From an uncultured Candidatus Binatia bacterium (GTDB lineage Bacteria > Desulfobacterota > Binatia > Bin18): 64,000 nt of DNA. Numbering within the stretch: the first letter of the stretch is position 1; every line of letters begins with the position of its first letter. Location of the stretch: positions 1,792,001-1,856,000 of the forward strand of contig OZ241744.1 of the NCBI GenBank assembly GCA_965200965.1. The letters are read 5' to 3'. The notes under the pieces are model-generated. The model worked only from the letters and a program-made list of their open reading frames with translations, was not told the origin of the DNA and did no database searches. Both the position numbers and the translations under genes were made by a program. Of the stretch, positions 10,942-53,196 are shown in pieces.

Positions 10942-13247
10942 GTGGTCTGGCCCGAAAGCGGCTCAGCCGGGCGGTTGAGCGACTGGAGTTGAAGCGGAAT
11001 CAGCGTGTTCGCCAGGCTGAGGCCCAGCATATACAGGCCCATCTCGGTCTGGAGGCGCAGCGGCGACAGCAGCCACACCAGGGCCGCCCCGGCGCTGACA
11101 ATGGCCAGGGCTGTCAGGGCAGAGCCGAGCCAGTCCCAGGCCGGGGCGTGGTCGGCCGTGTCTGTGTCGCGCAGGGCCAGACTGGCCGGTAGAATGACCG
11201 TGCCCAGAGCGACCAGGACAACCGGCAGGGTGTGCATATTGAGATCGATATTGGCCACCCACAGCACGATCAGCATCACCGCTTGCGACAGAACAACGGC
11301 CAAGCTGAGCAGGCCAGCCGCGCGCATGCTGCCCAGGCCGATCAGCCCGCCGCAAAACGCCAGACCAAGCAAGGCGCTCAACAGAGACCAGTAGCTGCAC
11401 GCTACCCCGGTGTGGATGGCGGCCACCACCCCAAGCAGGCCGCCGCCAGAGCGAAACTCAACCGGCATACCCGTATTGGGTCCCTCAAAGGACCGGAGGC
11501 GGGCCAGGGCGCGCTTGACCAGCCCCGGAGAATAGTCCCGATAGAAGAGCGTGACCGCGGTGGTGCGGAAGTCGGTTGACAGAAAGCTCCCGACCTCGCT
11601 CGGCGTGGTTGCTCCGGCCACGATCCGAAAGATGATCTGTCCGGTTGAGCTGATATCGTCGGGCAGCATCGCCCATTTGGGAATGTTTTCGTGAAACATA
11701 CGGGTGATGGACTTCACAAAACCGGGGACTGCTACCGCGCCACCAAACTGCCGGTCGGCGGCCATGTGGAGCTGAAACGCTTCAAGGACTTGCAGGGCAC
11801 CAAGATCACGAAACCCGGCCTCACCGGGCGTATGGGCGACCACGATCAACTGATTGACACCAATGAAATGTTGGTTGAGCAGGCCGAAGGCGCGGCTATA
11901 CGGATGCCCGGTCGGAAAAAGCCGACTGCCCAGCATCGACCGCCCGGCTTCGAGTTGAAGGGCGGCCAGCAGGCCGAAAAAGGCAAGCGCAATACATCCC
12001 GTCCGGGTCAGCGCGCGGGTCTGAGCGAGGCTGCGCAAGCGCGGAGTAAAGCGGGCGATCAGCGGCAGCTCTCCGCGGCCGAGCGCGCCGTACCGAAAGC
12101 CGGCAGACCACGCCGGGAGGACCAGCCACACCGACATCAGCAGGCCAAGCAGCCAACCTGTACCCAGCAGACCAAAGGTGCGGACGGCTGGCACGTCCGA
12201 CCACCACGCCACCACCCCAAGAGACAGCCCGTCAATCAGCACCGCCGAGGTACACGGAGGCCACAGCGCCCGGGCGGTCCGGACGACCGCCTGAGGGGGT
12301 GTATTCTGTCGCTCAGAACTCGTCTGCCACTCGCTCGTCACCCGGCTCGTCCAGCCCAGCACCAGGCACAGGCCGCGGCCGGCCAGGGGAAAAAGCATGA
12401 GCCAGGCGAGCGGTTCAAACGAACGTCCAGCCATCCCCAGCAGGCCGAGTCCACCCGCGGCAGCCAGGCCCGAGACGATCAGCAGTCCGCCCACCGTATG
12501 GACCACCCCCGGCAGGATGCCACACACGCCGGCCAGCAGGAGCGCGGCCAGGGCGCTGAGCACCAGCACCAGCAGCACACGCGGGCCGGCCTCCATCAAC
12601 CAGCCGGCCAGGACGATGTTGCCGGCAAAGGCCACCTCGGTGTTGACATCTCGCTCTTGTGCGGCAAAGCGCCGCAGCCGACTAAACACGCGGTAAGGGT
12701 TGACCTCGGCGTCCCAAAAGCCGGCCCGGATGAGTGCGGTTTTATTATCCTCCGACACATACACGCCGCGGATGCCCAGGTTGGTGTACACCGCGTTCTT
12801 GATCCGGGCCAGTTCCTGCGGGCTCTGGGTCTGGCCAGGCGTGCGGACAACGGGCAGGATATTGATCATCCCGTCGCGGATTTTGATATCTGTCAGCCGA
12901 CTGTGGGTGAGGGACAGGACCTCGTGCGGGTTGACCCCTTTGGTTTCGAGCAGTCCGACCGTCAGGCGATGAATCTTCCCCAGCGTCTCGGTATTGTACA
13001 GGTCGCCGTCTTTGACCGAGACCAGCACGACCACGGCATTGGTCATCCGCAACATCTCGGGGAAGTCCTGATACAGACGGATATGGGGGTGCCGGTCGGG
13101 GTAATAGTCCGTTATGCTGGTGAGCAGCCTGAGCTGTTGAGCGGAGGATGCTCCCCACACGAGCACCACTGCGGCTACCGGGATGGCCAGCCACCGCCGG
13201 CGCAGCAAAAACCGACAATATCGCTCTGCCCACCCGTCTCCAGGCAT
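10938..13247 (-). CDS. MMPL/RND-family membrane protein (divergent paralogue of 14486..16981)
   Basis: Two periplasmic domains plus TM blocks; shares GVNP..LSLTH, AVYTN.G, AGFW, IPKWA, GGLLGV with the paralogue. Confidence 0.8.
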   Translation of the reverse strand: MPGDGWAERYCRFLLRRRWLAIPVAAVVLVWGASSAQQLRLLTSITDYYPDRHPHIRLYQDFPEMLRMTNAVVVLVSVKDGDLYNTETLGKIHRLTVGLLETKGVNPHEVLSLTHSRLTDIKIRDGMINILPVVRTPGQTQSPQELARIKNAVYTNLGIRGVYVSEDNKTALIRAGFWDAEVNPYRVFSRLRRFAAQERDVNTEVAFAGNIVLAGWLMEAGPRVLLVLVLSALAALLLAGVCGILPGVVHTVGGLLIVSGLAAAGGLGLLGMAGRSFEPLAWLMLFPLAGRGLCLVLGWTSRVTSEWQTSSERQNTPPQAVVRTARALWPPCTSAVLIDGLSLGVVAWWSDVPAVRTFGLLGTGWLLGLLMSVWLVLPAWSAGFRYGALGRGELPLIARFTPRLRSLAQTRALTRTGCIALAFFGLLAALQLEAGRSMLGSRLFPTGHPYSRAFGLLNQHFIGVNQLIVVAHTPGEAGFRDLGALQVLEAFQLHMAADRQFGGAVAVPGFVKSITRMFHENIPKWAMLPDDISSTGQIIFRIVAGATTPSEVGSFLSTDFRTTAVTLFYRDYSPGLVKRALARLRSFEGPNTGMPVEFRSGGGLLGVVAAIHTGVACSYWSLLSALLGLAFCGGLIGLGSMRAAGLLSLAVVLSQAVMLIVLWVANIDLNMHTLPVVLVALGTVILPASLALRDTDTADHAPAWDWLGSALTALAIVSAGAALVWLLSPLRLQTEMGLYMLGLSLANTLIPLQLQSLNRPAEPLSGQTT

Positions 13248-33287: not shown

Positions 33288-34448
33288 ATGCGTCACGAGT
33301 TTGAGAGCCTGCGCCAGAACGGCATTACCCAGGTCGGCCTGCCCCGCCTCGGCGACCCGTCCGTCATTCCGCTGTGGTTTGGCGAGGGCGACCTGCCCAC
33401 CCCGGCCTTTATCCGCCAAGCCGCCAAAGACGCGCTCGACGCCGGCCTGACCTTCTACACCCATCCCGTAGGACGGCCCGAGCTGCGGGCGGCGATCAAG
33501 ACCTATCTCGACCGGCTGTACGCGATTGACCTTGAGGTCGGCCGCATCGGCGTGCCGGGCTCAACCATGCTGGGCATCTCAATGGCGGCCCGCATGGCAC
33601 TCGGCCCCGGCGACCACGGCCTGATCGTCAGCCCCAACTGGCCTAATATCGACCGGGCGTTCCAGATGACCGGGGCGAGGTTCGACTTTGTGCGCCAGCG
33701 GTTCGGGCCGGCCGGCTGGCGGCTTGCGCTTGACGATCTGTTCACCGCGGTCCGCCCGGAGACCACGGCGCTGTTTCTCAACACGCCCTGCAACCCCACC
33801 GGCTGGGTCATGCCCGGCGACGAACAGCAAGAGTTGCTGGACTTCTGCCGGCGGCGCGGCATCGTCATCATTGCCGACGAGGTCTATCACCGGAACATCT
33901 TTGAGGGTGAGGTTGCCCCGTCTTTTCTGTCCATTGCCACACCGAACGATCCGCTGATTGTGGTCAACGGCTTTTCCAAGGCATTCGCCATGACCGGCTG
34001 GCGGCTGGGCTGGATGGTTGTGCCGGCCGGCTACGGCGAGCAGATGGCCGCCTTCTCCGAGTGCGCCAATACCGGGGCACCGCCCTTTATTCAGAGCGCC
34101 GGCATGGTCGCCCTCAGCCAGGGTGAGCCGTTTGTGCGGGAGCTGCGCGAGCGCTACCGGGCCGGCCGTGAGGCGGTCATGCGCCGGCTGGCCCCGCATC
34201 CGCGTATTGAGTTGAGTGAGCCGACCGGGGCTTTCTACGCCTTTCCCCGCGTCCGGGGGCTGCGCTCCAGCCTGGAGTTTGTGAACGGCCTGCTGGCCGA
34301 GAAAAACGTCGGCCTCGCCCCGGGCTTTACCTTTGGGCCGGGCAACGAGTCCCATTTCCGGCTGTGCTTTGCCCAGTCCGGCCAGCGGCTCGAAACCGCC
34401 CTCGACCGCATCCTTGACTATCTTGACAACTATGAGTTTGCCGGATAA
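33288..34448 (+). CDS. PLP-dependent aminotransferase class I/II
   Basis: GEGDLPTP, NTPCNPTG, ADEVY, GFSKAFAMTGWRLG, GAFYAF. Confidence 0.92.
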   Translation: MRHEFESLRQNGITQVGLPRLGDPSVIPLWFGEGDLPTPAFIRQAAKDALDAGLTFYTHPVGRPELRAAIKTYLDRLYAIDLEVGRIGVPGSTMLGISMAARMALGPGDHGLIVSPNWPNIDRAFQMTGARFDFVRQRFGPAGWRLALDDLFTAVRPETTALFLNTPCNPTGWVMPGDEQQELLDFCRRRGIVIIADEVYHRNIFEGEVAPSFLSIATPNDPLIVVNGFSKAFAMTGWRLGWMVVPAGYGEQMAAFSECANTGAPPFIQSAGMVALSQGEPFVRELRERYRAGREAVMRRLAPHPRIELSEPTGAFYAFPRVRGLRSSLEFVNGLLAEKNVGLAPGFTFGPGNESHFRLCFAQSGQRLETALDRILDYLDNYEFAG

Positions 34449-34516
34449 GTGAGTCGGACGAAGCGGGGTCTTGCTTGCCCAGAACGCGCGGGCTGACCTG
34501 GCAGCATCCAGGGCCA
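34422..34516 (+). repeat. Direct repeat copy 1 (aminotransferase 3' end plus downstream sequence)
   Basis: Ungapped match to 34962-35056; 78/95 identical by hand count. Confidence 0.85.
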
Positions 34517-34525
34517 GGAGGAAGC

Positions 34526-34833: not shown

Positions 34834-34988
34834 AGCAAAAGGACTTTGACCGCTTGGCGACAACTGTGAAGCAGGTGGAGGTCAGTTGCCGAGAACAAAT
34901 TCAACTCGGACGGACGACCGATTTTCGACCCAAAGATATGCACGCGATGCACACTCAGCGACTTGACACTTATGAGTTTGCAGGATGA
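34830..34988 (+). pseudogene. Degenerate N-terminal fragment of an HTH (HigA/NadS-like) antitoxin running into repeat copy 2
   Basis: MKQKDFDRLATTVKQV....REQIQLGRTTDFRPKDM resembles the leader of NadS/HigA-type antitoxins; the HTH is missing; ends LDTYEFAG*. Confidence 0.45.
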
Positions 34989-35056
34989 ATGTGTCAGGCG
35001 AAGAAGGTTCTTGCTTGCCCAGGACGCGCAGGCTCATCTCGCGGCATCCAGGGCCA
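34962..35056 (+). repeat. Direct repeat copy 2
   Basis: Encodes LDTYEFAG* versus LDNYEFAG* in the aminotransferase; offset is exactly 540 bp. Confidence 0.85.
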
Positions 35057-35107
35057 AGCGGTTTTGCCGCATATTTGGAATGGGAATGGACTCACACGGA
35101 ACGACCA

Positions 35108-39247: not shown

Positions 39248-41612
39248 TCAGGCCGCGTACAGCCGGCGTTGCAGCTGACTGACCGCGCCGCGCAAGGCCC
39301 CACTCCCGCCAAAGCGGGAGGCGAGTTCAATCACGTTGCCCCAGCCGTTGAACGGCGGCACCTCAAGGATATCGGGCAGGGTGAACTGTGCGCTGCCGTG
39401 TTCGGTGTATTTTTCCAGCAGCGCGTCCAGCACCTCGCGGGCCGACCGGCCAAACGTTTCAAAGAAATCCGTTTCCTCCCGCCTCAGCCGCTCGGCCCGC
39501 TCGCGGCGCGTCCGCAGGGGCGCGTTGTAGGCCAGATGACATAACAGGTCAAAGGGGTCAGCCTCGGGCTTGCCGACGGACTCAGCAAGGGTTTCGATCT
39601 CAATCCCTCTCCGCTCCAGGTCCTCAACGATCCGCGCCCGCGGACCGGGCTCGCGCCAGTCCGTGCGCAACTCGGAGGCGTTCGGGTAAAGCGTGCGGAC
39701 CGTGTCGCCCGTGTAGTCGGTGAGCTGACGGACCGAGAGTCTTTTCCCCTCGGCGTCGAGCTCAAAGACCAGGTGTCGCAGAATCTCCACCCACCCACCG
39801 TCAACATACAGCTTACGCGGCTCGGCGTCCGGCGGCTCATCTACCTCCGGTGCAGTGTCGAAATCTTCGGTAGAAGCGACCGGCTCAGCCGTCTCCTGCT
39901 CCTCAAGCACAGCGCCGGCAGCGTCAACAACGGCCTTCCGCTCGCCGACCGGCTGGCCGTCAAAAGCCGGGTCGGCGAACTTCCCGGTCGCGGTCCCGGT
40001 GTAGTCAATGATGTTGAAGGCCAGTTTGCCGTAGTCGGGACGCAGCCGGGTGCCCCGGCCGATAATCTGCTTGAACTCGGGCAGTGAGCCGACCACGCGG
40101 GCCAGGACGATGTTCTTGCAGGTCGGCGCGTCAACGCCGGTGGTCAGCAACTGTGAGGTCGTCAGGACGGCCGGCGTCCTGGTCTCGACATCCTGGAACT
40201 TGGCGCGGTGGGCGCTGCCAATATCGCCCTCGTCCGCGGTCACGCGACAGAGATAGTCAGGGTAGTGTTTGACCAGGTCGGCGTTGAGCGAGGCCAGGGC
40301 GTGGCGCATCTCCGAGGCGTGCTCCTGGTCAACACAGAACACGATAGTCTTGGCAAAGCGGTCGGTCTGCTTGAGGAAACCGGTCAGATGCCGGGCGATG
40401 GCCCGGGTCCGGGCGCGGAGGGCAACGCTCCGCTCAAAGTCCTTTGTCGCGTACTCGGCGTCTGGAATCTGTCTGCCGTAGCGGTCACGCTCGCCCCTGG
40501 GCCGGCCTCCAGCCGGCAGCGTCATAGTCGGTGATGACCCGGTGGACGCGGTAGGGGGCGAGAAAACCATCGGCAATGCCTTGAGCCAGGCTGTATTCGT
40601 ACAGCGGGTCGCCAAAGTAGGCGTAGGTGTCGGCGTTGTCCTGCCGGCGGGGCGTGGCCGTCATGCCGAGTTGATAGGCCGGCTCGAACCATTCCAGAAT
40701 CTCCCGCCAATGGCTGTCATCGCGTGCGCTGCCGCGGTGGCATTCGTCCACCAGGACCAAGTCGAAGAAGTCTCTCGGATACGCGCGGTACAGCCCCGGG
40801 CGGTTCTCATCACGCGCAATGGCCTGGTAGATGGCAAAGTACATATCCCGGCTCTTTACCGCCTCGCCACCGCCGATCTTGTGCCGGGCGTCGCCGAACG
40901 GGCGGAAGTCCTTTGCTATTGGATCATCAACCAGAACGTTGCGGTCAGCCAGGAACAGCATTTTCGGTTTCCGCCCCGTGCCTGTGGCGTTCCAGCCGGC
41001 CGTCCACAGCTTCCAGCATATCTGGAAGGCCACCGCGGTCTTGCCGGCACCGGTACACAGGGTCAGGAGGACGCGCCGGTGCCCCTGCAAAACGGCTTGC
41101 AACGCGCGGTTGACCGAGAGTTCCTGGTAGTAGCGGAGCGGCTTTGCCCGGTCGGGATGGCTCGGGGTGAGCAGAGTGTCGGCCACGCGGTCATCGATGA
41201 TGGCGTCTGCCTCTCGCAGGCGGTGCCACAGTTCCTCGGGCCGGGGGAACTCGGCACGGTCACGTTCAAGGCCGGTCGTAGAGTCGAACTCAATAAGTTC
41301 GCTGCCATTGGTCGCATAGGCAAACTTCAGGCCGAGGATGTCGGCGTAGTCTTTGGCCTGCTGGAGCCCATCGCTCGCCCGCCTGTGACGCGCCTTGGCC
41401 TCAACGACCGCAATGGGAAAGTCGGAGCGATAGCGCAACAGATAGTCGGCGCGCTTCTGTCTGCCGCGCCTGGCCCTGTTGCCGACAAAGAGAACCCGGC
41501 CGTCGGTGAAGGTCCGCTGCTCGTTGATGGCGTGGGGCGGAGCATCCCAGCCGGCTGCCTGCAACTTGGGGACAACAAACTTCCGGCAGGTATCGGCTTC
41601 GGTCAGCGGCAC
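39248..41612 (-). pseudogene. hsdR: Type I RM restriction subunit (EcoEI-like), frameshifted near 40495
   Basis: VVEAK, QQAKDY, TGAGKT, DECH, MTATP in one frame; LTTGVD, QIIGRGTR and an EcoEI-type C-terminus in the next; one extra base in the CCAGGGG run. Confidence 0.9.
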
Positions 41613-41624
41613 GCAAACACCTCT

Positions 41625-42809
<1,185 letters not shown>

Positions 42810-42871
42810 CAGCACCCTTCCTCTTTTCCTCACTGGCCCGCGGTCAGCCCCAGCTCTCCACCCTGCTCTGC

Positions 42872-45103
42872 TCACTCGGACAGCGGCCCCTCAGCGGCAA
42901 AGCGGCGCAGGACATTGTCGGTAATGCGCGACACGTTGTTCTCATAGCCGTTGTGAGACAAGGCTCCACACCAGGCGATCGAACTGGACGAAAAGACTGC
43001 TCCGCCTTTGGGATATTCACAATACACCATATCGGCCCGGACCTTGGGGTTGACCGTGCCGCCCTGGCGCGAATCGCTCGACAGGACCTCTTCAATCACA
43101 TGCTGGTAGGCGTCCGAATGGCCGGACGAGGAGGCCAGCACCAGGGCGTGGGCCGGCGTGCCCAGGGAAGGTTCGGCGCGGTCCAGCTCAAAACCTGCCG
43201 CCCCGTAGTTCAAGACCAGCGAGTCAAAATCGCCTATCGCTTCGTCGGCTTCGATGCCTTCAAAAATAAACCCCGCGCGCGGGTCAAAGCTGCCCGGCTG
43301 GCGCTGATAGGCGGCGCTGGTGTCAAAGCCCTGGCTGGTAAAGCCAACCCCGACCAGGCCTTGCGGCGCTCTGCCGCGTGAACGCCACAGGCCGCCCGGC
43401 TCCCCGGTGGTGCTGTGATAATACTCGCCAGGTCTGGCCTGCCAGGTGCGCGTCCCGCCCCAGCGCCGGACCTCAATCACATGTGGCCGACCGGGGGCAA
43501 ATGAGGTTACCCAGTAGAAGCCGTTGCCGCCCAGATACATCAGCCGCCCGCCGTTTTGCAGGTAGCTTTCCAGGGCGTCCAGCATCGGCCCTGACCAGTA
43601 CTCGGGGTGAATGCCGGTGAGAATGACCCTGTAGCCGGCCAGCAGGTCCAGGCCCTCGTGGTGCAGGTCCTCATCGGTGATGACATCAGAGGCGTGGCCT
43701 TTGGCTTCGAGCCAGTCAAGCAGGTGCAGGTCAGCGGGAAACTGGTGCGGGCAGCCAAGCGCCCGCATGTAATAGCGGGGGCGCATATTCATAATCGGCC
43801 GCAGGCGTGAGGAATAACACACCCCGCTGCCGTCCGTGTGGTGGTCGTACAGGCTGACCAGACCGTTGGCCGCGGAATAGCGATCTTCGGCAGTCGCCTC
43901 GCCCTGATGCTGGTTGGGGGCCAGGCCCGGCGGAATATCGGTCAGTTGCTCGTTGGCATAGGCCAGATAACTGTTGGTGGGAGCCAGGAAAGCAATATCG
44001 GCGCTGGGCTGACCTTGTGGCGGATGCACAAAAAACGGAATATGGTCTTCGTCGTCCCCGGTGCGCAGGCGGGCGGCATACACCCCGCTTTTCAGCCCGG
44101 CCGGCAGGGTCCAGGCAAAATCCACCTGCCAGCCGGCGTCCTCAAGGTCGTCATCGTGAAAATGCATAGCCCCGTACTCGTGCGGAGCGCGCTGAAAGCA
44201 GGTTTCCTGCCCCCTCCAGTTATGGCCGGTCATGGCCCGGGCCGGCATATTGACCGTGTGGCCGTGCAAGCCGTGGGGTGCAGTGTCTCTGACTGTCGCC
44301 GAGGCCATATCGACCGAAAAATCCCAGGCGGCGACAAGATCATCACCAAAGGCCAGCGGTGAGGCCCCGCGCTGGAGCGAGATCAGTTCTTCTTGACTCA
44401 GAGCACGGCGGAACACGCGCGGGCGGTCGAGCTTGCCGTTGAAATGTCGCTCAACCCGGGACTCTCCGTCGGCCCCAGCCTGCCACAGGCCGGCCATCAG
44501 AAAGTCGGCTGTGGTCGTGTGGACCGTCCGGCTGTTGGTCGAGGCAGTCGCCACCCCCCGGGTCGGATCGTGGGGCCAAGTCCGCAGCGGCTCCTGATAG
44601 ACCGCCAGCGTTCCGCTTTGGGCGTCAAAGGTTGCCGCCACAAAATACCACTCTGCGGCGCGCAATGACGCACCACCCCGCACCTGCCGCCGGCGGCCTT
44701 CGGCATCAGTCAGCCACAGGGCCAGGACCCCGCCGGCCTCAAGCACCAAAGCATAGCCGCGGTCAGCGGCCGCCCATTTGGCAAGAATCCCCTGTTCACC
44801 TTTGTGCGGAGTGGTGGGATAGAGCCAGGCTTGCAGGCTGAAGCTGGTGTGCAGGCGGAGCGCCGGGGCGTCGGGCACGACGATGTGCGAGCCAGTGTGG
44901 AGCACCTGTTCACGGCCCGGGTACTCACCGCTGACCGTCGTCTGAACACGCTCCTCTTTGAAGCCCGGACCGCGTGGATTGGGATCACCGTGGATCAGGC
45001 GCACCATATCGGCCTGATAGCGCGGCCGCCGGCAACTGACATGAAAATGAATCGTTTCACCTGGAGCGACGCTGAGTTGATCAGCATAGCCGACGATCTC
45101 CAT
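42872..45103 (-). CDS. N,N-dimethylformamidase large-subunit family protein with a LamG insert
   Basis: GYAD.LSVAPGE, GAMHFHDDDL, YLAYAN, SLYD.H.DGSG, HPEYWS, MYLGGNGFYW, NNVSRIT.NVL. Confidence 0.88.
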   Translation of the reverse strand: MEIVGYADQLSVAPGETIHFHVSCRRPRYQADMVRLIHGDPNPRGPGFKEERVQTTVSGEYPGREQVLHTGSHIVVPDAPALRLHTSFSLQAWLYPTTPHKGEQGILAKWAAADRGYALVLEAGGVLALWLTDAEGRRRQVRGGASLRAAEWYFVAATFDAQSGTLAVYQEPLRTWPHDPTRGVATASTNSRTVHTTTADFLMAGLWQAGADGESRVERHFNGKLDRPRVFRRALSQEELISLQRGASPLAFGDDLVAAWDFSVDMASATVRDTAPHGLHGHTVNMPARAMTGHNWRGQETCFQRAPHEYGAMHFHDDDLEDAGWQVDFAWTLPAGLKSGVYAARLRTGDDEDHIPFFVHPPQGQPSADIAFLAPTNSYLAYANEQLTDIPPGLAPNQHQGEATAEDRYSAANGLVSLYDHHTDGSGVCYSSRLRPIMNMRPRYYMRALGCPHQFPADLHLLDWLEAKGHASDVITDEDLHHEGLDLLAGYRVILTGIHPEYWSGPMLDALESYLQNGGRLMYLGGNGFYWVTSFAPGRPHVIEVRRWGGTRTWQARPGEYYHSTTGEPGGLWRSRGRAPQGLVGVGFTSQGFDTSAAYQRQPGSFDPRAGFIFEGIEADEAIGDFDSLVLNYGAAGFELDRAEPSLGTPAHALVLASSSGHSDAYQHVIEEVLSSDSRQGGTVNPKVRADMVYCEYPKGGAVFSSSSIAWCGALSHNGYENNVSRITDNVLRRFAAEGPLSE

Positions 45104-45138
45104 GTGTGTCTCCCTCCTGATAGCGCCCCGCCGGCCGC

Positions 45139-45759
45139 CTAGTGGCCGAGGCCGGGGATGGCTTCCAAATGCGGTAAGGGATGGCCTATAACGTCCGAAA
45201 AAAGCAGCAACACCCGGTGGGTGATCCCCCACACCACCTGCTGGCGGTAGCCAATCGCCGGGTACCATATGGAGACGCGCCGGGTCGGGAGATTGAGCGC
45301 GGTGGCGTTGCGCTCGTCCCACAGATGCGCCAGGGGTATCCAGTACGCCTCCCCAACCTCGTCGTTGGGGGTCAGCGGGGCGAGGGTCGGCCCCAGGTAA
45401 TACACAAACGGGGCGAGGAACAGCAGCCGGTCGCGGCCACGCAGCACGATCGACAGTTCGGCCAGCGCTCCCAGCCGGTGGGCGGGCGCTAACACGAGAC
45501 CCACCTCTTCATACGTCTCCCGTTCGGCCGTTTCCTGTAAACTGGCATCCTCTGGCGCGGCCCGGCCGCCCGGCAGGGCCATATCGCCCGCCCAGGGGTC
45601 ACCCGCCCGGTCGGCCCGACGGATGACGCACAGGTACAGGGCGGGTTCAGCCCCGGCTAAGACCAGCGCCACCGCGGTCCGGTTGCGGTCGAGTTGAGAC
45701 ATCCCCCCGGCTGGGGTGTGCTGAGCCAGAGCGTGCTCAATGGCGGCAATGCGGAACAT
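45139..45759 (-). CDS. Nudix hydrolase (CoA pyrophosphatase-like)
   Basis: DPWAGDMALPGG....D......A.RETYEEVG Nudix box; VWGIT. Confidence 0.88.
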   Translation of the reverse strand: MFRIAAIEHALAQHTPAGGMSQLDRNRTAVALVLAGAEPALYLCVIRRADRAGDPWAGDMALPGGRAAPEDASLQETAERETYEEVGLVLAPAHRLGALAELSIVLRGRDRLLFLAPFVYYLGPTLAPLTPNDEVGEAYWIPLAHLWDERNATALNLPTRRVSIWYPAIGYRQQVVWGITHRVLLLFSDVIGHPLPHLEAIPGLGH

Positions 45760-45863
45760 GGCTGGCGGCAATTATTCTGCCCTTGGGCCGGCTTTGTCAA
45801 ACCAACCTGAGCTTGACGCTGATACCGGAGCGGAGTAGGGATGACGACACAGGAGGAGCGCCT

Positions 45864-46307
45864 ATGGCCAAAACCTATGCCAGACAGATGCTATCGTATG
45901 AGACTGCTGCCAAGATGGTAGCCGCGGCAGTTGCCAAAGCCGAGGAGTTGGGGTGCAAACAGAATGTGGCGGTGGTTGATAGCGGGGGCAATCTGAAAGC
46001 CCTGGCCAGTATGGACGGAGCGCTGTTGCTCGGCATTGAGGGCTGTCAGCGCAAGGCGTTTACGGCGTTGTTTGGGGTCGGCACCCAAGACCTGTACGGC
46101 CGCATCAAGGACAACCTGTCGCTGGTGGTCGGCCTGTCCCACTTCTCACGCGCGACCCTGGTCGGGGGCGGCCTGCCGATTGTGGTCAATGGAGAAGTAA
46201 TCGGCGGGATCGGGGTCGGGGGCGGGACGCTTGACGAAGACATCGCCTGCTCTCAGGCCGGGCTGGACGCTCTTGCCGACGAATCGTCAGAGAAAGGAAG
46301 CCTGTGA
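45864..46307 (+). CDS. GlcG/HbpS family heme-binding protein
   Basis: VAVVDSGG.L....MDGA, KAFTA, GGLPI...GEVIGGIGVGG; AGGAGG RBS. Confidence 0.88.
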   Translation: MAKTYARQMLSYETAAKMVAAAVAKAEELGCKQNVAVVDSGGNLKALASMDGALLLGIEGCQRKAFTALFGVGTQDLYGRIKDNLSLVVGLSHFSRATLVGGGLPIVVNGEVIGGIGVGGGTLDEDIACSQAGLDALADESSEKGSL

Positions 46308-47173
46308 TGCAAACCATCAGCAAAGAGCATATTGTACGGACGTTTGACGCCGCGCACCCCGCGGCTGCCACGGTCAAGCCCGGGGAAGTGTTTGTGATGG
46401 AAACCAACGACCGCTTTCGAGACTGGAACGAGGGCGGGGAGTGGCCCATGGAGCAGCTGGCCGTCATGACCGGGCCGGTCTGTATTGACGGCGTGCAGCC
46501 CGGCCAGGTGCTGGCCGTGGAAGTGTTGGACATCAAAGCCTCCCAGGGCTTCGGCTATGTGGTGACAATTCCGGGCTTCGGCCTGCTCAAAGACCGGGTC
46601 GAGTTTCGGAAAAAAGTCGTCCCGATTGAGGGCAACCGCATTCGCTACAGCGACACCCTGAGCCTGCCTTTTCTTCCCAATATCAGCAAAATCGGCTTGG
46701 CTCCGGCCTCGGGCTCTCAGCCGAGCGGGGCGTGTGGAGATTTCGGCGGTCAGCTCAGCAACAGCCAGCTGGGGGTTGGCTCAACCGTCTTTTTGCCGGT
46801 GTTTATTGAGGGCGGGCTGCTGACCATTGAAGACGTCCATGCCAGGATGGGCGATGGTGAGGCCACCGCCTCGGCGGTGGAGATTGCGGCCGGCGTGACG
46901 CTGCGCTGTCAGATTGCGACGGAACTGCCGCTCGGCCAGCCGATCGTTATCACCCGGGACGAGGTTCAGACCATGGGCAGTGGCGAAACGGCCGAAGCCG
47001 CGGCACGGGCGGCCCTGGACGAACTGGCCCGGCTGCTGGTTGAGCGGACCGGGGCCGATATGACCGAGGCGGCGATGCTGGCCAGCGTGGCGGCCGATCT
47101 GCGCATTTCCGAGATGGCCGGCAGCCCGTGTCATATCCGGGCGGCCATGAAGCGCGAGATTCTGGGTCTGTAG
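46304..47173 (+). CDS. Acetamidase/formamidase family protein
   Basis: V.PGE..V.ET.D, TGPV.I.G..PG..L.V..LDI, FGG.L.N, D.HA.MGDGE. Confidence 0.85.
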   Translation: MMQTISKEHIVRTFDAAHPAAATVKPGEVFVMETNDRFRDWNEGGEWPMEQLAVMTGPVCIDGVQPGQVLAVEVLDIKASQGFGYVVTIPGFGLLKDRVEFRKKVVPIEGNRIRYSDTLSLPFLPNISKIGLAPASGSQPSGACGDFGGQLSNSQLGVGSTVFLPVFIEGGLLTIEDVHARMGDGEATASAVEIAAGVTLRCQIATELPLGQPIVITRDEVQTMGSGETAEAAARAALDELARLLVERTGADMTEAAMLASVAADLRISEMAGSPCHIRAAMKREILGL

Positions 47174-47182
47174 CTTGACAGC

Positions 47183-47533
47183 TCAGGAAATCTCCACATC
47201 CTCAACAATGAAGACGCGGGAGCTGGCAAAGTCAACAAACTTCAGTTCGTCCGGTCGGATTAGTTCGAGATAGCGAGGATGGCTGAAGGCTCGGCCGATG
47301 TCCTCAACGCTGTCAAACCACAGCTCGGCGATGCCGTCGAACGGGGCGTCGTCCTGGGGCGGGAAGCCGGGCACTGGATCGCTCAGGGTGTGGCCCTGGA
47401 CATAGCGACGGACATAGCCCCAGAACTCGGGCACGCTGCGGACGAGCGGCCCGTGCCGGTTTTTCCAGTAGTCCTGAAACTCGGCGGTTGTCATCCCGGC
47501 TTTGCGGCGCGCGCAGGCAACAAATTTGACCAT
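47183..47533 (-). CDS. EthD-domain protein
   Basis: RKAGMT..EF..YW...HGPL, RYVQ.H, DGIAELWFDS, DE.KFVD. Confidence 0.88.
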   Translation of the reverse strand: MVKFVACARRKAGMTTAEFQDYWKNRHGPLVRSVPEFWGYVRRYVQGHTLSDPVPGFPPQDDAPFDGIAELWFDSVEDIGRAFSHPRYLELIRPDELKFVDFASSRVFIVEDVEIS

Positions 47534-47727
47534 CAGCTTCTCCCTCCACGGGCTGGGCTGTCTGACTGCCGGACTATAGCCTGCCGTTGGCGGAGAGTCA
47601 AACGCCGCCGGCCTCATCCTCCCACCGCCTGATACGCGCCGCCTTATAGGTCTCTGCATCCTCTTCAATTTTGGCGATCTGGCCAGCCCGGCAGTGGTGG
47701 GGCGGGCGGGTCACGAGCAGGGCGGAC

Positions 47728-49446
47728 TCACATCGCTTCCAGGGTCTCAATTCCCAACAACTCTAAGCCCGTCTTCAAGTAGCGGGCGGTCAGGGCACAC
47801 AGCAACAGCCGGGTCGGGCGGTGGTCCGGGGGCGCTTTGAGCACCTGATGAGCCTGGTAGAAGAGGTTGAATCTGGTGGCCAGATCGTACAAAAAACCGG
47901 CCAGCAGATTGGGTTTATAGGTACGCTCGACTTCGAGCAAGACATCGCCAAAGCGAATCATCTGTTTGGCCAGCGCTTGTTCTTCTGGCGCGTGGAGCCG
48001 GATGTCCATATCCGCCGTGGGCTGCCAGTCGGCCAAGTCACCGCGCCGAAAAATCGAACGAATACGGGCGTAGACATACTGGAGATACGGAGCGGTGTTG
48101 CCCTCAAAGGCCAGCAGCTTGTCCCAACTGAACCGATAGTCGGCCGTGCGGTTCTGCATCAGGTCGGCGTATTTCACCGCCCCAAGCCCAACCACCCGGG
48201 CAACCTCTTGCTGCTCGGCCTCAGACAGACTTGGATTTTTGTCGTGGACCACGACCAGGGCACGCTGTACGGCTTCGTCGAGCAGCGCTTCGAGCTTGAC
48301 CGGCTCCCCCTCGCGGGTCTTAATCGGCCTCCCGTCCTCGCCCAGGATGGTCCCAAACCAGACATGGTTGAGCTCAGGCCGATAGCCCCACCTCCGGGCG
48401 GCGGCAAACAGCTGCTTGAAGTGGAGCTGCTGGCGGCCGTCAGTCACATACACAATGCGGCCCGGCTGAAACGTTTCGACCCGATATTGAATCGTCGCCA
48501 AGTCGGTGGTGGCATACAGATAGGCCCCGTCCGACTTCTGGATCAGAAACGGGCGCTCGGACAACTGGGGGTCATCGTCATAAAAGATGCACACCGCCCC
48601 TTGACTGGGGCGAGCAATGCGCCTGGCCTGTAAGTCCTGCACCACCCTGGCCAGCATCGGATGATAAAAACTCTCGCCCAGCCAGTGGTCAAAGCTGATA
48701 TTGAGCCGCTGGTAGAGTCGCTCAAAGGCGTGGCGTGAAATATCCAGAAACTCTTGCCACAGGGCCGTATTCTCAGCATCGCCTTGTTGCAGCTTGGCCA
48801 GCTCGTGGCGGGCCTGCTCGGCGACCGCCGGCTGCGTCTTGGTCTGGGCCTGCACGACCTTATAGATGCGCTCCATTTCGCTGAGCGGATCGCGGCGGTA
48901 GGCGTCTGTGTCCAACACGGTCCGATAGCCAACGATCAGCATCCCGAACTGGGTGCCCCAGTCACCAACGTGGTTGTCCGTCACCACCCTGTGGCCGACA
49001 AAGCGCAGGAGGCGGGCCAGGGCGTCGCCCAGAATCGTTGAGCGGATGTGGCCGACGTGCATGGGCTTGGCGATATTGGGTGCGCTGAAATCAATCACAA
49101 TCGTTTCCGGCTGATCGACAGGCCCCAGCCCCAGCCGGACATCAAGGGCGGTCTTGATAAGGATCTGGCCGAGCCAGTCAGGATCGAGGCGAAAATTGAT
49201 AAAGCCGGGTCCGGCAATCTCCCAGCGAGCCGGAATTTCATCACGACTCAGCCGATCGCTTACCTCTTGGGCGAGCTGGCGGGGGTTTTTCTTTTGCGTC
49301 TTGGCCACCGCCATCACTCCGTTCGCCTGATAATCGCCAAAGCGTGGATTGACCGCGGGGTTGACCAGGGCGGGGGCCGAGGTCCCGCTGGCTGCGGCCA
49401 GGGCTTGGGTCGTTTTTTCTTCGAGCAGCTGTTGAATCGTTGCCAT
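47728..49446 (-). CDS. argS: Arginine--tRNA ligase
   Basis: FGDYQAN, AGPGFINF, PNIAKPMHVGHIRSTILGD, GDWGTQFG, GNTAPYLQY, C-terminal M. Confidence 0.97.
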   Translation of the reverse strand: MATIQQLLEEKTTQALAAASGTSAPALVNPAVNPRFGDYQANGVMAVAKTQKKNPRQLAQEVSDRLSRDEIPARWEIAGPGFINFRLDPDWLGQILIKTALDVRLGLGPVDQPETIVIDFSAPNIAKPMHVGHIRSTILGDALARLLRFVGHRVVTDNHVGDWGTQFGMLIVGYRTVLDTDAYRRDPLSEMERIYKVVQAQTKTQPAVAEQARHELAKLQQGDAENTALWQEFLDISRHAFERLYQRLNISFDHWLGESFYHPMLARVVQDLQARRIARPSQGAVCIFYDDDPQLSERPFLIQKSDGAYLYATTDLATIQYRVETFQPGRIVYVTDGRQQLHFKQLFAAARRWGYRPELNHVWFGTILGEDGRPIKTREGEPVKLEALLDEAVQRALVVVHDKNPSLSEAEQQEVARVVGLGAVKYADLMQNRTADYRFSWDKLLAFEGNTAPYLQYVYARIRSIFRRGDLADWQPTADMDIRLHAPEEQALAKQMIRFGDVLLEVERTYKPNLLAGFLYDLATRFNLFYQAHQVLKAPPDHRPTRLLLCALTARYLKTGLELLGIETLEAM

Positions 49447-49573
49447 AGCGGTTGAGGGAACAGGAGCGTTGGGCCACCGGTAGATGTAGCAAATGCCGTT
49501 CTGGCTTCGCAAGGGTCACGATCCATTTGCGTCGGTTCCGGCTTTGTGTCATTTTCTGGCTGGGAACGGAGAA

Positions 49574-50812
49574 TTGGACAAGAACGCGGGACAAGATTTT
49601 GGCGTGAGTCGGCTCAGCCCCCAGTTGGCCCAGTGGCGCGAATGGCTGGCTCTGCGTTCGGTGCGCGGGGTAGGCAATGTCAGCTTCCGCATGCTGCTTG
49701 AGCGCTTTGATTCGCCTCAGGCCGTCTTTGCCGCGTCTGTGGCACGGCTGACCGATGCCGGATTTCAGCCCGCGGTCGCCCGGGCTATTGTGAGCTTTGA
49801 CCAATGGGGAGCGGTTGACGCCGAGTTGGAGCAGATCGTTCGGGCTGGGGTGCGCCTGGTGACCCAGGCTGATTCGGAATATCCGAAAAATCTCACCCAC
49901 ATTCATGACCCCCCGCCCTTTGTGTATATCCGTGGCAGCTTGGAGCCGCAGGACCAGGTCGCCGTCGCGATTGTAGGCGCACGGTCTGCCAGCCCCTACG
50001 GTCGAGATGTGACCAGACAGCTGGCGCGTGATTTAGCCCACAGACGAGTGACCGTGGTGAGCGGGTTGGCCCGGGGTATTGATGCCGAGGCGCACCGTGC
50101 GGCGCTGGAGGCCGGGGGACGGACGATTGGCGTGCTTGGGTCGGGGCTGGATGTGCTCTACCCGTCCGAGCATAGGCGACTGGCCCAGGACATGACCCAG
50201 CACGGCGCAGTGATTTCGGAATTCGCTCTGGGCAGCCAACCCGAAGCCGGCAATTTTCCCTACCGCAACCGGGTTATCAGCGGCCTGAGCCTGGGGACGA
50301 GCCCAAGGGGCACGGTCCGTAGCGGCCCCGGGGACCGCAACCGGGTTATCAGCGGCCTGAGCCTGGGGACGGTGGTCATTGAGGCAGCCGAAAAGAGCGG
50401 CTCTTTGATAACCGCCCGCTGCGCCCTGGAGCAAAATAGAGAGGTGTTTGCCGTTCCGGGCCATATCACCGCCAGCCGGAGCCGGGGGCCGCACGATTTG
50501 ATCAAACAGGGGGCAAAGCTAGTTGAGAGCGTTGAGGATATTCTGGTTGAAATTGCGCCGACGGTTCCAGTCCGGGCTGAGGCTCAAGACGGCACCGGGG
50601 CGGTGTCTGGCCAGCCTGGGCTATCCGCTATCGCGGCCCTTGAGCCCGACGAAGAGCTGCTGGTCAAGCTGTTTGACGGGGAGCCCTTGCATGTCAATGT
50701 CTTGATTGCCAGAAGTGGACTTGGGCCGGCCCGCGTGCTTGAGGTATTATTAGGGCTGGAACTCAAAGGGATGGTCAGCCAACTGCCCGGCACCCATTTT
50801 ACCCGGGTCTGA
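49574..50812 (+). CDS. dprA: DNA-processing protein DprA carrying a 24-aa in-frame insertion (start uncertain; alternative GTG at 49604)
   Basis: VAIVGAR, VVSGLARGID..AH, RNRVISGLS (present twice), VIEA..KSGSLITA, REVFAVPG; upstream of topA. Confidence 0.93.
   Translation: MDKNAGQDFGVSRLSPQLAQWREWLALRSVRGVGNVSFRMLLERFDSPQAVFAASVARLTDAGFQPAVARAIVSFDQWGAVDAELEQIVRAGVRLVTQADSEYPKNLTHIHDPPPFVYIRGSLEPQDQVAVAIVGARSASPYGRDVTRQLARDLAHRRVTVVSGLARGIDAEAHRAALEAGGRTIGVLGSGLDVLYPSEHRRLAQDMTQHGAVISEFALGSQPEAGNFPYRNRVISGLSLGTSPRGTVRSGPGDRNRVISGLSLGTVVIEAAEKSGSLITARCALEQNREVFAVPGHITASRSRGPHDLIKQGAKLVESVEDILVEIAPTVPVRAEAQDGTGAVSGQPGLSAIAALEPDEELLVKLFDGEPLHVNVLIARSGLGPARVLEVLLGLELKGMVSQLPGTHFTRV
50262..50371 (+). 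repeat. 38-bp perfect direct repeat flanking a 34-bp unique insert (repeat-spacer-repeat)
   Basis: ACCGCAACCGGGTTATCAGCGGCCTGAGCCTGGGGACG at 50262-50299 and 50334-50371; insert at 50300-50333. Confidence 0.95.
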
Positions 50813-50847
50813 GTTGGCAGGGGTTGGGGATGAAGGGGGCTGAAAGA

Positions 50848-53196
50848 ATGGCAAAAAATCTGGTGATTGTGGAATCTCCGGCCAAGGCCAGGACGATCGG
50901 CAAATACCTGGGGCCTGACTATCAGGTCAAGGCTTCGGTCGGGCATATCATGGACCTGCCCAAGAGCAAGCTGGGGGTGGATGTGGACAAAGGCTTTGCC
51001 GCCCACTATCAGGTCATTCGGGGCAAGGCCAAGGTGGTTGAGGACCTGCGCAAGGCGGCCAAGGGCAAAACGCAGATTTTTCTGGCCTCTGACCCCGACC
51101 GCGAAGGGGAAGCGATCGCCTGGCATATTGCCGAAAAAATAGGCGCGAAAAACGGCCCGCAGGGGCCCAGAATCTCGCGTATTCTGCTGAACGAAATCAC
51201 CAGGAAAGCGGTCAGCGACGCGCTGGACAATCCCAAGGCACTCAACCGCGAGCGCTACGACGCCCAGATTGCGCGGCGGATTCTGGACCGCCTGGTCGGG
51301 TATAAAATCAGTCCGCTGCTGTGGGAAAAGGTGAGAGGCGGCCTATCCGCCGGACGCGTTCAGTCAGTAGCGGTTCGTATCATCAGCGAACGCGAGGCCG
51401 AGATTCGCGCCTTCGTACCAGTCGAATACTGGTCAATCATCGCCAACCTTGAGGGCCAACTGCCACCGGCTTTTGAGGCCCGGCTGTCAAAAGTCGGCGA
51501 CCGGCGGGTTGATAACAAAACCTTCCGTATCGAGAACCAGGAGCAGGCCGAGGCGATCCTGAGCCGGCTTGACGAAGCCCGTTGGACGGTGGACAAGATT
51601 GAAAAGCGCGACCGCCGGCGCAATCCTGCCCCCCCGTTCATTACCTCCCGGCTCCAGCAGGAAGCGTCGCGTAAGCTCGGTTACGCCCCAAGCCGGACGA
51701 TGGGCATTGCCCAGCGTTTGTACACGGGCGTTGAGCTCGGCGCTGAGGGCGCGGTCGGCCTGATCACCTACATGCGGACCGACTCCCCGCGCATCTCCCC
51801 GGCAATGATGGTGGCAGCGCGCGATTACCTGACGACAAACTACGGTGCGCAGTATGTCCCAAAACGGCCCAATGTCTTTCGCTCGGCCAAAAGCGCCCAG
51901 GAGGCACACGAGGCGATTCGCCCCACCTCCCTGGAGCATATGCCCCAGCGGGTCGCGGCCTTTCTGAAGCCTGATGAACTGCGGCTGTATACCCTGATCT
52001 GGAACCGTTTTCTGGCCAGCCAGATGGCCCCCGCTCTTTTTGAACAGACGACCGTGGATATTCGCGTCAACGACTACACCTTCCGCGCCAGCGGCCAAGT
52101 CATGCGTTTTGACGGCTTTCTGCGGGTCTATACCGAGGGAAAGGACGATAAAACCAGCGAGGATGAGGATGCCGAAAAACAACTGCCGGCCCTGACCCAG
52201 GGCGAGGTCCTGCACCTCCTCAAGCTGACCCCCAACCAGCACTTCACCCAGCCGCCGCCGCGTTTTACCCAGGCCACGCTGATCAAAGAACTGGAAGAGA
52301 ACGGCGTAGGTCGTCCCTCGACCTACGCCTCAATCATGGGCACGATTCTCAATAAAGAATATGTGCAGGAGGATGGGCAACGGCGTCTGCGACCGACCGA
52401 CCTCGGCATGTTGGTCACCGAACTCCTCGTTGAGTCCTTCCCCGATGTGCTGAACGTCGAGTTTACTGCCGGCATGGAAGAAATCCTGGATAAAATCGAA
52501 GAGGGCAAAGAAGACTGGCAGCGGGCGATGGACCGCTTCTACGCCCCATTCGCGGCCCGGCTTGAAAAAGCCGCCACACAGATGCGGGATGTCAAAGGCA
52601 GCGGCACGCCGACCGACATCGCCTGTCAAGACTGCGCCGACGGCCAGATGGTCATCAAGTGGGGCCGCAACGGCGAGTTCCTCGCCTGCACCAAGTACCC
52701 CAAGTGTACCGCCACCCGCAACTTCAGCCGCGATGAAAACGGGCGGATCGTAGCCGAGGAACGGGAAGAGACCCTGACCGACGAGACCTGCGAGAAGTGT
52801 GGCCGGCCTATGCAGGTCCGCTTTAGCCGGTATGGCAAGTTCCTGGGCTGCTCAGGCTACCCGGAATGCAAGGCGATCAAAAAGCCGGGCCGAGCCGCGG
52901 CTGTGTCCTTGGACATTACCTGCCCAGACTGCCACGAGGGTAAGATCCAGCAGAAGCAGTCTCGCCGCGGAAAAACCTTCTACAGTTGTAATCGTTATCC
53001 GAAGTGCAACTTTGCCCTGTGGGACAAGCCTGTGGCTGTGCCCTGCCCACAGTGCCAGGCACCCTTTGTTGTTGAAAAAACGACCAAGCGGGCCGGCACG
53101 GTCCGACGCTGTTTCCGGGACGAGTGCGACTATGCAGTGCCGGTTGAGCAGGCACCGGTCGCAGCCGAGCCGCCCGTGGAGCAGGTGGCAGGCTGA
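50848..53196 (+). CDS. topA: DNA topoisomerase I with C-terminal Zn ribbons
   Basis: LVIVESPAKA, DPDREGEAI, SAGRVQS, GLITYMRTDS, AQEAHEAIRPT, several C4 Zn ribbons. Confidence 0.97.
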   Translation: MAKNLVIVESPAKARTIGKYLGPDYQVKASVGHIMDLPKSKLGVDVDKGFAAHYQVIRGKAKVVEDLRKAAKGKTQIFLASDPDREGEAIAWHIAEKIGAKNGPQGPRISRILLNEITRKAVSDALDNPKALNRERYDAQIARRILDRLVGYKISPLLWEKVRGGLSAGRVQSVAVRIISEREAEIRAFVPVEYWSIIANLEGQLPPAFEARLSKVGDRRVDNKTFRIENQEQAEAILSRLDEARWTVDKIEKRDRRRNPAPPFITSRLQQEASRKLGYAPSRTMGIAQRLYTGVELGAEGAVGLITYMRTDSPRISPAMMVAARDYLTTNYGAQYVPKRPNVFRSAKSAQEAHEAIRPTSLEHMPQRVAAFLKPDELRLYTLIWNRFLASQMAPALFEQTTVDIRVNDYTFRASGQVMRFDGFLRVYTEGKDDKTSEDEDAEKQLPALTQGEVLHLLKLTPNQHFTQPPPRFTQATLIKELEENGVGRPSTYASIMGTILNKEYVQEDGQRRLRPTDLGMLVTELLVESFPDVLNVEFTAGMEEILDKIEEGKEDWQRAMDRFYAPFAARLEKAATQMRDVKGSGTPTDIACQDCADGQMVIKWGRNGEFLACTKYPKCTATRNFSRDENGRIVAEEREETLTDETCEKCGRPMQVRFSRYGKFLGCSGYPECKAIKKPGRAAAVSLDITCPDCHEGKIQQKQSRRGKTFYSCNRYPKCNFALWDKPVAVPCPQCQAPFVVEKTTKRAGTVRRCFRDECDYAVPVEQAPVAAEPPVEQVAG

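Follow-up and report, generated by a model that had tools for sequence, protein, structure and literature searches.

An in-frame duplication-plus-insert in dprA of an uncultured Candidatus Binatia bacterium, very probably left by off-target spacer integration of a type I-C CRISPR system

The window, that is, the whole stretch of 64,000 nucleotides that was analyzed, corresponds to G000:C1:1792001-1856000 in the single-contig 3.62-Mb genome (G000) of an uncultured Candidatus Binatia bacterium. It carries a dprA gene that is interrupted by a short unit of two direct repeats and an insert (Table 1). The longest open reading frame of dprA starts at 49493. Inside it, identical 38-bp copies at 50262-50299 and 50334-50371, 72 bp apart from start to start, enclose a 34-mer, and the unit reads RNRVISGLSLGT-SPRGTVRSGPGD-RNRVISGLSLGT in frame without a stop codon. 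The first-pass annotation had described this duplication at 50262..50371 as an open in-frame insertion, and its letters were recovered exactly as quoted. Two bases can be assigned to the repeat or to the insert, and the unit can accordingly be read as 36+36, 37+35, or 38+34, which agrees with the boundary range of 36-38 plus 34-36 bp given earlier.

Table 1. Positions of dprA, the parts of its duplication-plus-insert unit in the favored 37+35 reading, and the second unit of the window.
Feature	Position in the window	Strand	Description
dprA	49574..50812	+	412 aa with the insertion; 388 aa in other alleles; sole copy in the genome
Target site, copy 1	50262..50298	+	37 bp in the favored reading; exact identity extends to 50299
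Spacer-like insert	50299..50333	+	35 bp (34-36 possible); donor at G000:C1:1312089-1312123 with TTC directly 5′
Target site, copy 2 (duplication)	50334..50370	+	exact identity extends to 50371
Second unit	41927..42013	-	27-bp duplication around a 33-bp insert; type I-E geometry

No third copy of the 38-mer was found in the 3.62-Mb genome, where the next-best match was 15 bp. The proposed comparison of the 38-mer with the CRISPR repeats of the genome gave no exact match to any array repeat. The 60 bp upstream of the unit consist of dprA codons and showed no likeness to the I-C leader. With only two copies, 17/37 identity to the nearest repeat (I-C), and no leader, the unit is probably not a working CRISPR array.

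The dprA unit is real and recent. Short contigs of run X1 covered both insert junctions at depths of 45.7 and 46.8, compared with 42.7 and 41.8 in the flanks, and no joint skipping the unit was found among the X1 contigs placed on window positions 41000-52000. Because X1 may be the source sample of the window, it shows the unit in reads and not its recurrence. In runs X2, X4, and X10, which belong to three other studies, one contig each jumped from 50261 to 50334, skipping 72 bp, which corresponds to an empty site holding a single 38-mer; the X2 contig had 15 letter differences on its left piece and none on its right piece. The prevalence of the insertion is therefore based on four runs (X1, X2, X4, X10). 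The runs carrying the window stretch were labelled as sponge metagenomes, and the DprA homologues belonged to Candidatus Binatia wherever the source gave a name.

The relatives gave the same picture. The dprA gene was matched in 24 of 30 relatives, the matches of family members broke at the insert (query to ~700, then from ~735), and the sister species G007 had an empty site at offset 0. Among the 120 DprA homologues listed, 13 near-identical proteins (P0002-P0014) could be compared. Only the window's own protein had 412 aa and two motif copies; the other 12 had 388 aa and one copy, and P0008 was the pre-insertion protein. The read support and the orthologue comparison that had been proposed as checks thus both confirmed the insertion, and its recent origin, earlier deduced from the identity of the two copies, was upheld by the empty sites.

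The 36-bp form of the insert matched C1:1312088-1312123 at 36/36 positions, a single chromosomal site 530 kb away. This donor lies in a single-copy stretch inside a 190-codon open reading frame beside pmoC/pmoA-like genes and is also present in G007 at 97%. When shuffled 35-mers were compared with G000, the best had 22 matches and 0/1000 reached 31. The insert had previously been called foreign; the suggested BLASTN-type search instead traced it to one exact site on the cell's own chromosome. Templating from neighboring sequence, which the first-pass annotation had set against its own interpretation, was not observed, as the best local alignment of the insert to the dprA flanks scored 7, the background level. 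Directly 5′ of the donor lies TTT in the 36+36 reading, TTC in the 37+35 reading, and TCG in the 38+34 reading, with TGA on the other strand. TTC accounts for 1.3% of the triplets in G000 and is described as the canonical I-C PAM (PMC8482600). The genes adjoining the donor open reading frame, at L019:2058-3869, are pmoC/amoC-like and pmoA/amoA-like.

G000 contains six arrays, located beside type I-C, I-MYXAN, II-C, I-E, III-B, and V-C genes. In the I-C array, 128 identical repeats of 37 bp alternate with spacers of 34-38 bp, of which 37/127 are 35 bp long. The I-MYXAN array combines a 36-bp repeat with spacers of 34-38 bp, the III-B array has a 37-bp repeat and no 35-bp spacer (0/86), and the units of the II-C and I-E arrays measure 61-68 bp. 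Among the arrays of G000, a 37+35 unit fits only I-C and a 36+36 unit only I-MYXAN. The I-C genes cas3, cas5c, cas8c, cas7, cas4, and cas1c all scored above their cut-offs (Cas1c with 504 bits against a cut-off of 385), and cas2 was present. Where array spacers overlap each other, five rows among the matches listed were informative: three had TTC 5′ of the I-C spacer, two of these sharing one start, and the other two had TCC and TAC. Compared on the PAM-predicted strand, the 37-bp target agreed with the I-C repeat at 17/37 positions (genome tail p = 0.0058, uncorrected, and the best of ~14 strand, offset, and system tries), and with the I-MYXAN and III-B repeats at 13/36 and 13/37. Most other target sites were not repeat-like.

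Some observations speak against type I-C. Read as crRNA, 116/127 of the I-C spacers in G000 have C as their last base, and the dprA insert ends in G; this C-end bias is absent from the I-C array of G007 (41/111). The boundary is ambiguous by two bases, and TTC arises from the 37+35 reading only. The leader of the I-C array (G000:C1:1689412-1698693) also ends in C. Loss of IHF/HU was considered as a cause and rejected, as three PF00216 genes are present, the same as in four congeners.

The window contains a second unit of this kind, which the first-pass annotation had also read as a spacer integration; this was substantiated by a donor at G000:C1:1665370-1665402 with the I-E PAM AAG, whose G is the first base of the insert. 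It introduces a stop into a gene for a FAD-dependent oxidoreductase. X1 and X2 apparently carry the second unit; X4 and X10 lack it. Elsewhere in the window, two 100-bp copies at 34422-34521 and 34962-35061 are 81% alike and 540 bp apart.

G000 and 2.80 Mb of the 3.64-Mb genome of G007 were scanned for isolated direct repeats at a period of 40-100 bp, which yielded 33 and 43 rows, respectively. The inserts of 22 rows in G000 and 34 in G007 were not templated from the flanks, and periods of 60-80 bp were enriched among these units (15/22 in G000, p = 0.0013; 31/34 in G007, p = 8e-12). By eye, 14 units were retained in G000 (3.6 Mb) and 28 in G007 (2.8 Mb). An automatic filter returned the same rows plus three that had been dropped by eye, namely a coiled-coil repeat, a unit with its donor 300 bp away, and a degenerate I-MYXAN mini-array. 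Units in repeat proteins and a unit of period 66 at C1:1769160 were discarded because they are tandem duplications.

In both genomes the duplications clustered at 27-30 and 35-41 bp with inserts of 25-43 bp, and unit sizes mostly followed those of the resident arrays. Every unit had its own insert and its own target. Exactly empty orthologous sites were scored for 5/14 units of G000 against G007 and for 15/28 units of G007; a sixth G000 unit was empty in G007 across a locus boundary. The remaining units mostly lacked an orthologue in the sequence compared or had indels there, and no unit filled in both G000 and G007 was found. Self-derived inserts, defined by an own-genome match of at least 88%, made up 5/14 units against 7/476 array spacers in G000 (Fisher p = 6e-6) and 8/28 units against 0/199 array spacers in G007 (Fisher p = 2e-8), with V-C arrays left out of the counts. 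Pooled over both genomes, 13/42 inserts came from the cell's own chromosome, compared with 7/675 array spacers. For 9/14 of the G000 inserts no donor was found. A 36+35 unit in G007 had ATG, which we take to be the I-MYXAN PAM, directly 5′ of its donor; at several other donors no canonical PAM was seen. In-frame units accounted for 27/42 (p = 4e-5 against one third), 14/20 inside called genes and 13/22 outside them (Fisher p = 0.53, with a crude home-made gene caller). Since the in-frame share did not differ significantly inside and outside called genes, frame selection specific to coding DNA is not claimed. Several of the six Cas systems are likely to lie, through the same process, behind the other isolated units of G000 and G007.

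Several features of the resident systems were recorded alongside the scan. An isolated 37+39 unit in the III-B cas locus (G000:C1:3359968-3360080, L017) causes a frame shift near the end of a small gene. The insert of an isolated unit in G007 (L126:908-1007) resembles the V-C repeat of G000, that is, array DNA taken up as a spacer. The few self-matching spacers in the I-E and I-MYXAN arrays of G000 have off-register or non-canonical PAMs, such as CA before AG... and GAT before G..., which is what spacers that survived should show. The V-C array (G000:C1:678575-679116, L018) has a 25-bp repeat and 18-19-bp spacers, of which 5/12 match the own chromosome exactly; its Cas12c is split over two open reading frames, and its cas1 has a TAG inside the match. 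In G007, one I-MYXAN spacer (L064, near 13100-13150) matches the I-C repeat, and one CRISPR system may thus target the array of another. Solitary copies resembling the I-C repeat occur outside the array in L070, L078, L089, L102, L104, and L115 of G007 and at G000:C1:891605-891632. The cas1 content of relatives varies, with no cas1 hit in G003 and 8 in G004.

The dprA unit is very probably a scar of off-target spacer integration by the cell's own type I-C Cas4-Cas1-Cas2. The spacer-like integration by a non-I-E system that had been proposed at first was thereby sustained and narrowed to type I-C by the unit sizes, the TTC PAM, and the intact cas4-cas1-cas2. Another integrase of the same cell, either the I-MYXAN Cas4-Cas1 fusion or the III-B Cas1, is an unlikely source, even though both cas1 genes are intact and accompanied by cas2. 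A 36+36 unit would suit the I-MYXAN repeat and spacer lengths and account for the full 36-bp donor match, but its flanks are then TTT or, on the other strand, TGA, and not ATG. III-B integration would need no PAM, but 35-bp spacers are missing from its array, and the target is less similar to both repeats than to that of I-C.

Very unlikely is a repair accident without Cas1, in which a staggered break took up a distant fragment through template switching or end-joining, with duplication of its ends. Such an event would be expected to yield self-derived inserts; the donor has two bases (CG) in common with the left junction, and the insert can form a hairpin of -17.6 kcal/mol (a value without shuffle control). 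However, repair does not explain the two duplication size classes and the insert sizes seen in two genomes. It also fails to account for the TTC, AAG, and ATG motifs beside three donors, whose units have sizes in agreement with the corresponding systems. Mobile elements are known to integrate into competence genes, and many integrated elements are flanked by direct repeats of such length, so the 38-bp copies could be attL/attR or the target duplication of an integrative-element or small-transposon remnant; this is extremely unlikely, as the core is only 34-36 bp without terminal inverted repeats and is a single-copy stretch of a chromosomal open reading frame also found in G007, and all units differ in insert and target. 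An assembly or polishing artefact, which would agree with an insert seen in one assembly and one listed run only, has a negligible probability because X1 contigs run across both junctions at the depth of the flanks and include no joint of the empty-site kind, and the second unit of the window breaks X2 contigs, from another study, at its repeat with no skip joint.

For off-target integration by type I-C, we infer the enzymatic steps from what was observed, namely the unit geometry, the donor, the TTC PAM, the empty sites, and the intact cas genes. Cas1-Cas2 makes two 3′-OH attacks one repeat length apart (PMC10011333). The I-C complex would have captured a piece of the chromosome next to a TTC PAM and trimmed it to 35 bp. 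The two ends of the fragment would then have been joined to opposite strands 37 bp apart in dprA, at a site weakly resembling the I-C repeat, and host gap repair would have copied the 37 bp to give the duplication. Without a leader or a true repeat, the unit presumably yields no guide RNA, so the cell could have survived a self spacer with a correct PAM. This proposal fits the high share of self-derived inserts among the scars. The allele may subsequently have spread in the population because the 72 bp keep the frame and the added residues either loop out of the fold or hit a transformation pathway that was already decaying.

The DprA protein scored 267 bits against TIGR00732 (cut-off 191), matched PF02481, and contains both the G-A-R (G-S/T/A-R) and the F-x-x-R-N motifs. 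These are described as the single-stranded DNA-binding motifs of DprA, and the R143E substitution in H. pylori DprA as decreasing binding ~173-fold (PMC3950713). The insertion adds 24 residues, and the doubled segment begins at the Arg of F-x-x-R-N. The doubling of the most conserved motif claimed earlier therefore held for the R-N-R-V-I-S-G part and not for the Phe just upstream, which stays single. In the first copy, F-P-Y-R-N-R stays contiguous. In the suggested protein modeling, AlphaFold (mean pLDDT 82, 68 sequences) built the fold around a disordered loop of residues 226-250 with the second copy as the native helix. The modeled register follows the alignment gap and sets the Phe apart from Arg-Asn. 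With the first copy as the helix instead, the motif would be intact and the loop would leave at the helix-strand turn; a model of this other register, made with 10 part-length relatives, reached a mean pLDDT of 49 with too few sequences. The first-pass annotation had considered impairment of DprA and natural transformation probable; for the full-length 412-aa allele, we put the chances of damage at about even.

The genes comEC and comM were intact. The dN/dS of dprA was 0.26 (76th percentile of 1427 genes), compared with a median of 0.19 and 0.37 for comEC; relaxed selection on dprA was rejected, as this value still indicates purifying selection. In the comEA-like gene of G000 (G000:C1:2590300-2590780), the HhH domain lies behind an in-frame TGA and the 5′ part is unrelated to the open reading frame of G007, which encodes an intact comEA-like protein of 105 aa. 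The transformation pathway may already be decaying in the G000 strain.

A target duplication of repeat length is the expected footprint of off-target integration. Off-target integration and "neo-CRISPR" loci are described for the E. coli I-E system in cells that overproduced Cas1-Cas2 and were given oligonucleotides (Nivala, Shipman and Church 2018, as cited in 10.1101/148544 and PMC7054753), and the evidence for off-target integration in two other species is called circumstantial (10.1101/148544). As in the E. coli loci thus described, a spacer-sized piece was placed at a site other than the array, very probably by an integrase of the cell itself. Unlike them, the dprA event is natural, stands at full depth in a wild population, lies in a conserved gene, and is attributed to type I-C; moreover, the self donor and its PAM are mapped, and the size classes fit several subtypes in one genome. 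The unit resembles leader-directed I-C acquisition as described in PMC8482600 in its 37-bp duplication, 35-bp insert, TTC 5′ of the donor, and array orientation. Unlike in I-C acquisition into an array, the insertion lies in coding DNA that lacks a leader and agrees with the repeat at 17/37 positions. In addition, the insert matches the cell's own chromosome perfectly and its donor has a correct PAM, a combination seen in 0/238 I-C array spacers of the two genomes. The protein itself is, like known DprA (PF02481; structures 3MAJ, 3UQZ, 4LJR), a full SAM-Rossmann-winged-helix protein with both single-stranded DNA-binding motifs, and unlike them has 24 extra residues that double the R-N-bearing helix and are absent from the near-identical alleles checked. 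Among the titles and abstract openings of literature accessible without subscription, no report of natural, genome-wide, multi-subtype scars or of such a dprA insertion was found. We regard the dprA unit as a natural and well-supported form of an integration error that is already known, and the valuable part is the multi-system catalogue with its self-spacer contrast.

Autoimmunity removes self spacers from arrays, and most data were obtained with overexpression, which leaves open at what rate the native Cas1-Cas2 integrates outside its array and what share of naive adaptation is self DNA. Both quantities can be counted from genomes, here as 14 units in 3.6 Mb and 28 units in 2.8 Mb. For uncultured systems, such units further reveal PAMs and the lengths of duplications. 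They also illustrate how proteins can gain new loops, and dprA offers a natural allele pair differing by the insertion alone. Tentatively, and with somewhat more doubt than belief, we suggest that in CRISPR-rich bacteria the Cas1 integrases of multiple subtypes may act as a standing insertional mutagen, which would place duplication-plus-insert loops of 20-26 residues in conserved proteins and knock out others. Since the scars would give no guide RNA, they would form an unfiltered record of naive acquisition, about one third self and in some cases PAM-correct, which arrays lose. In the same tentative reading, dprA would be a case of an immune system disabling the gene-uptake route of its host.
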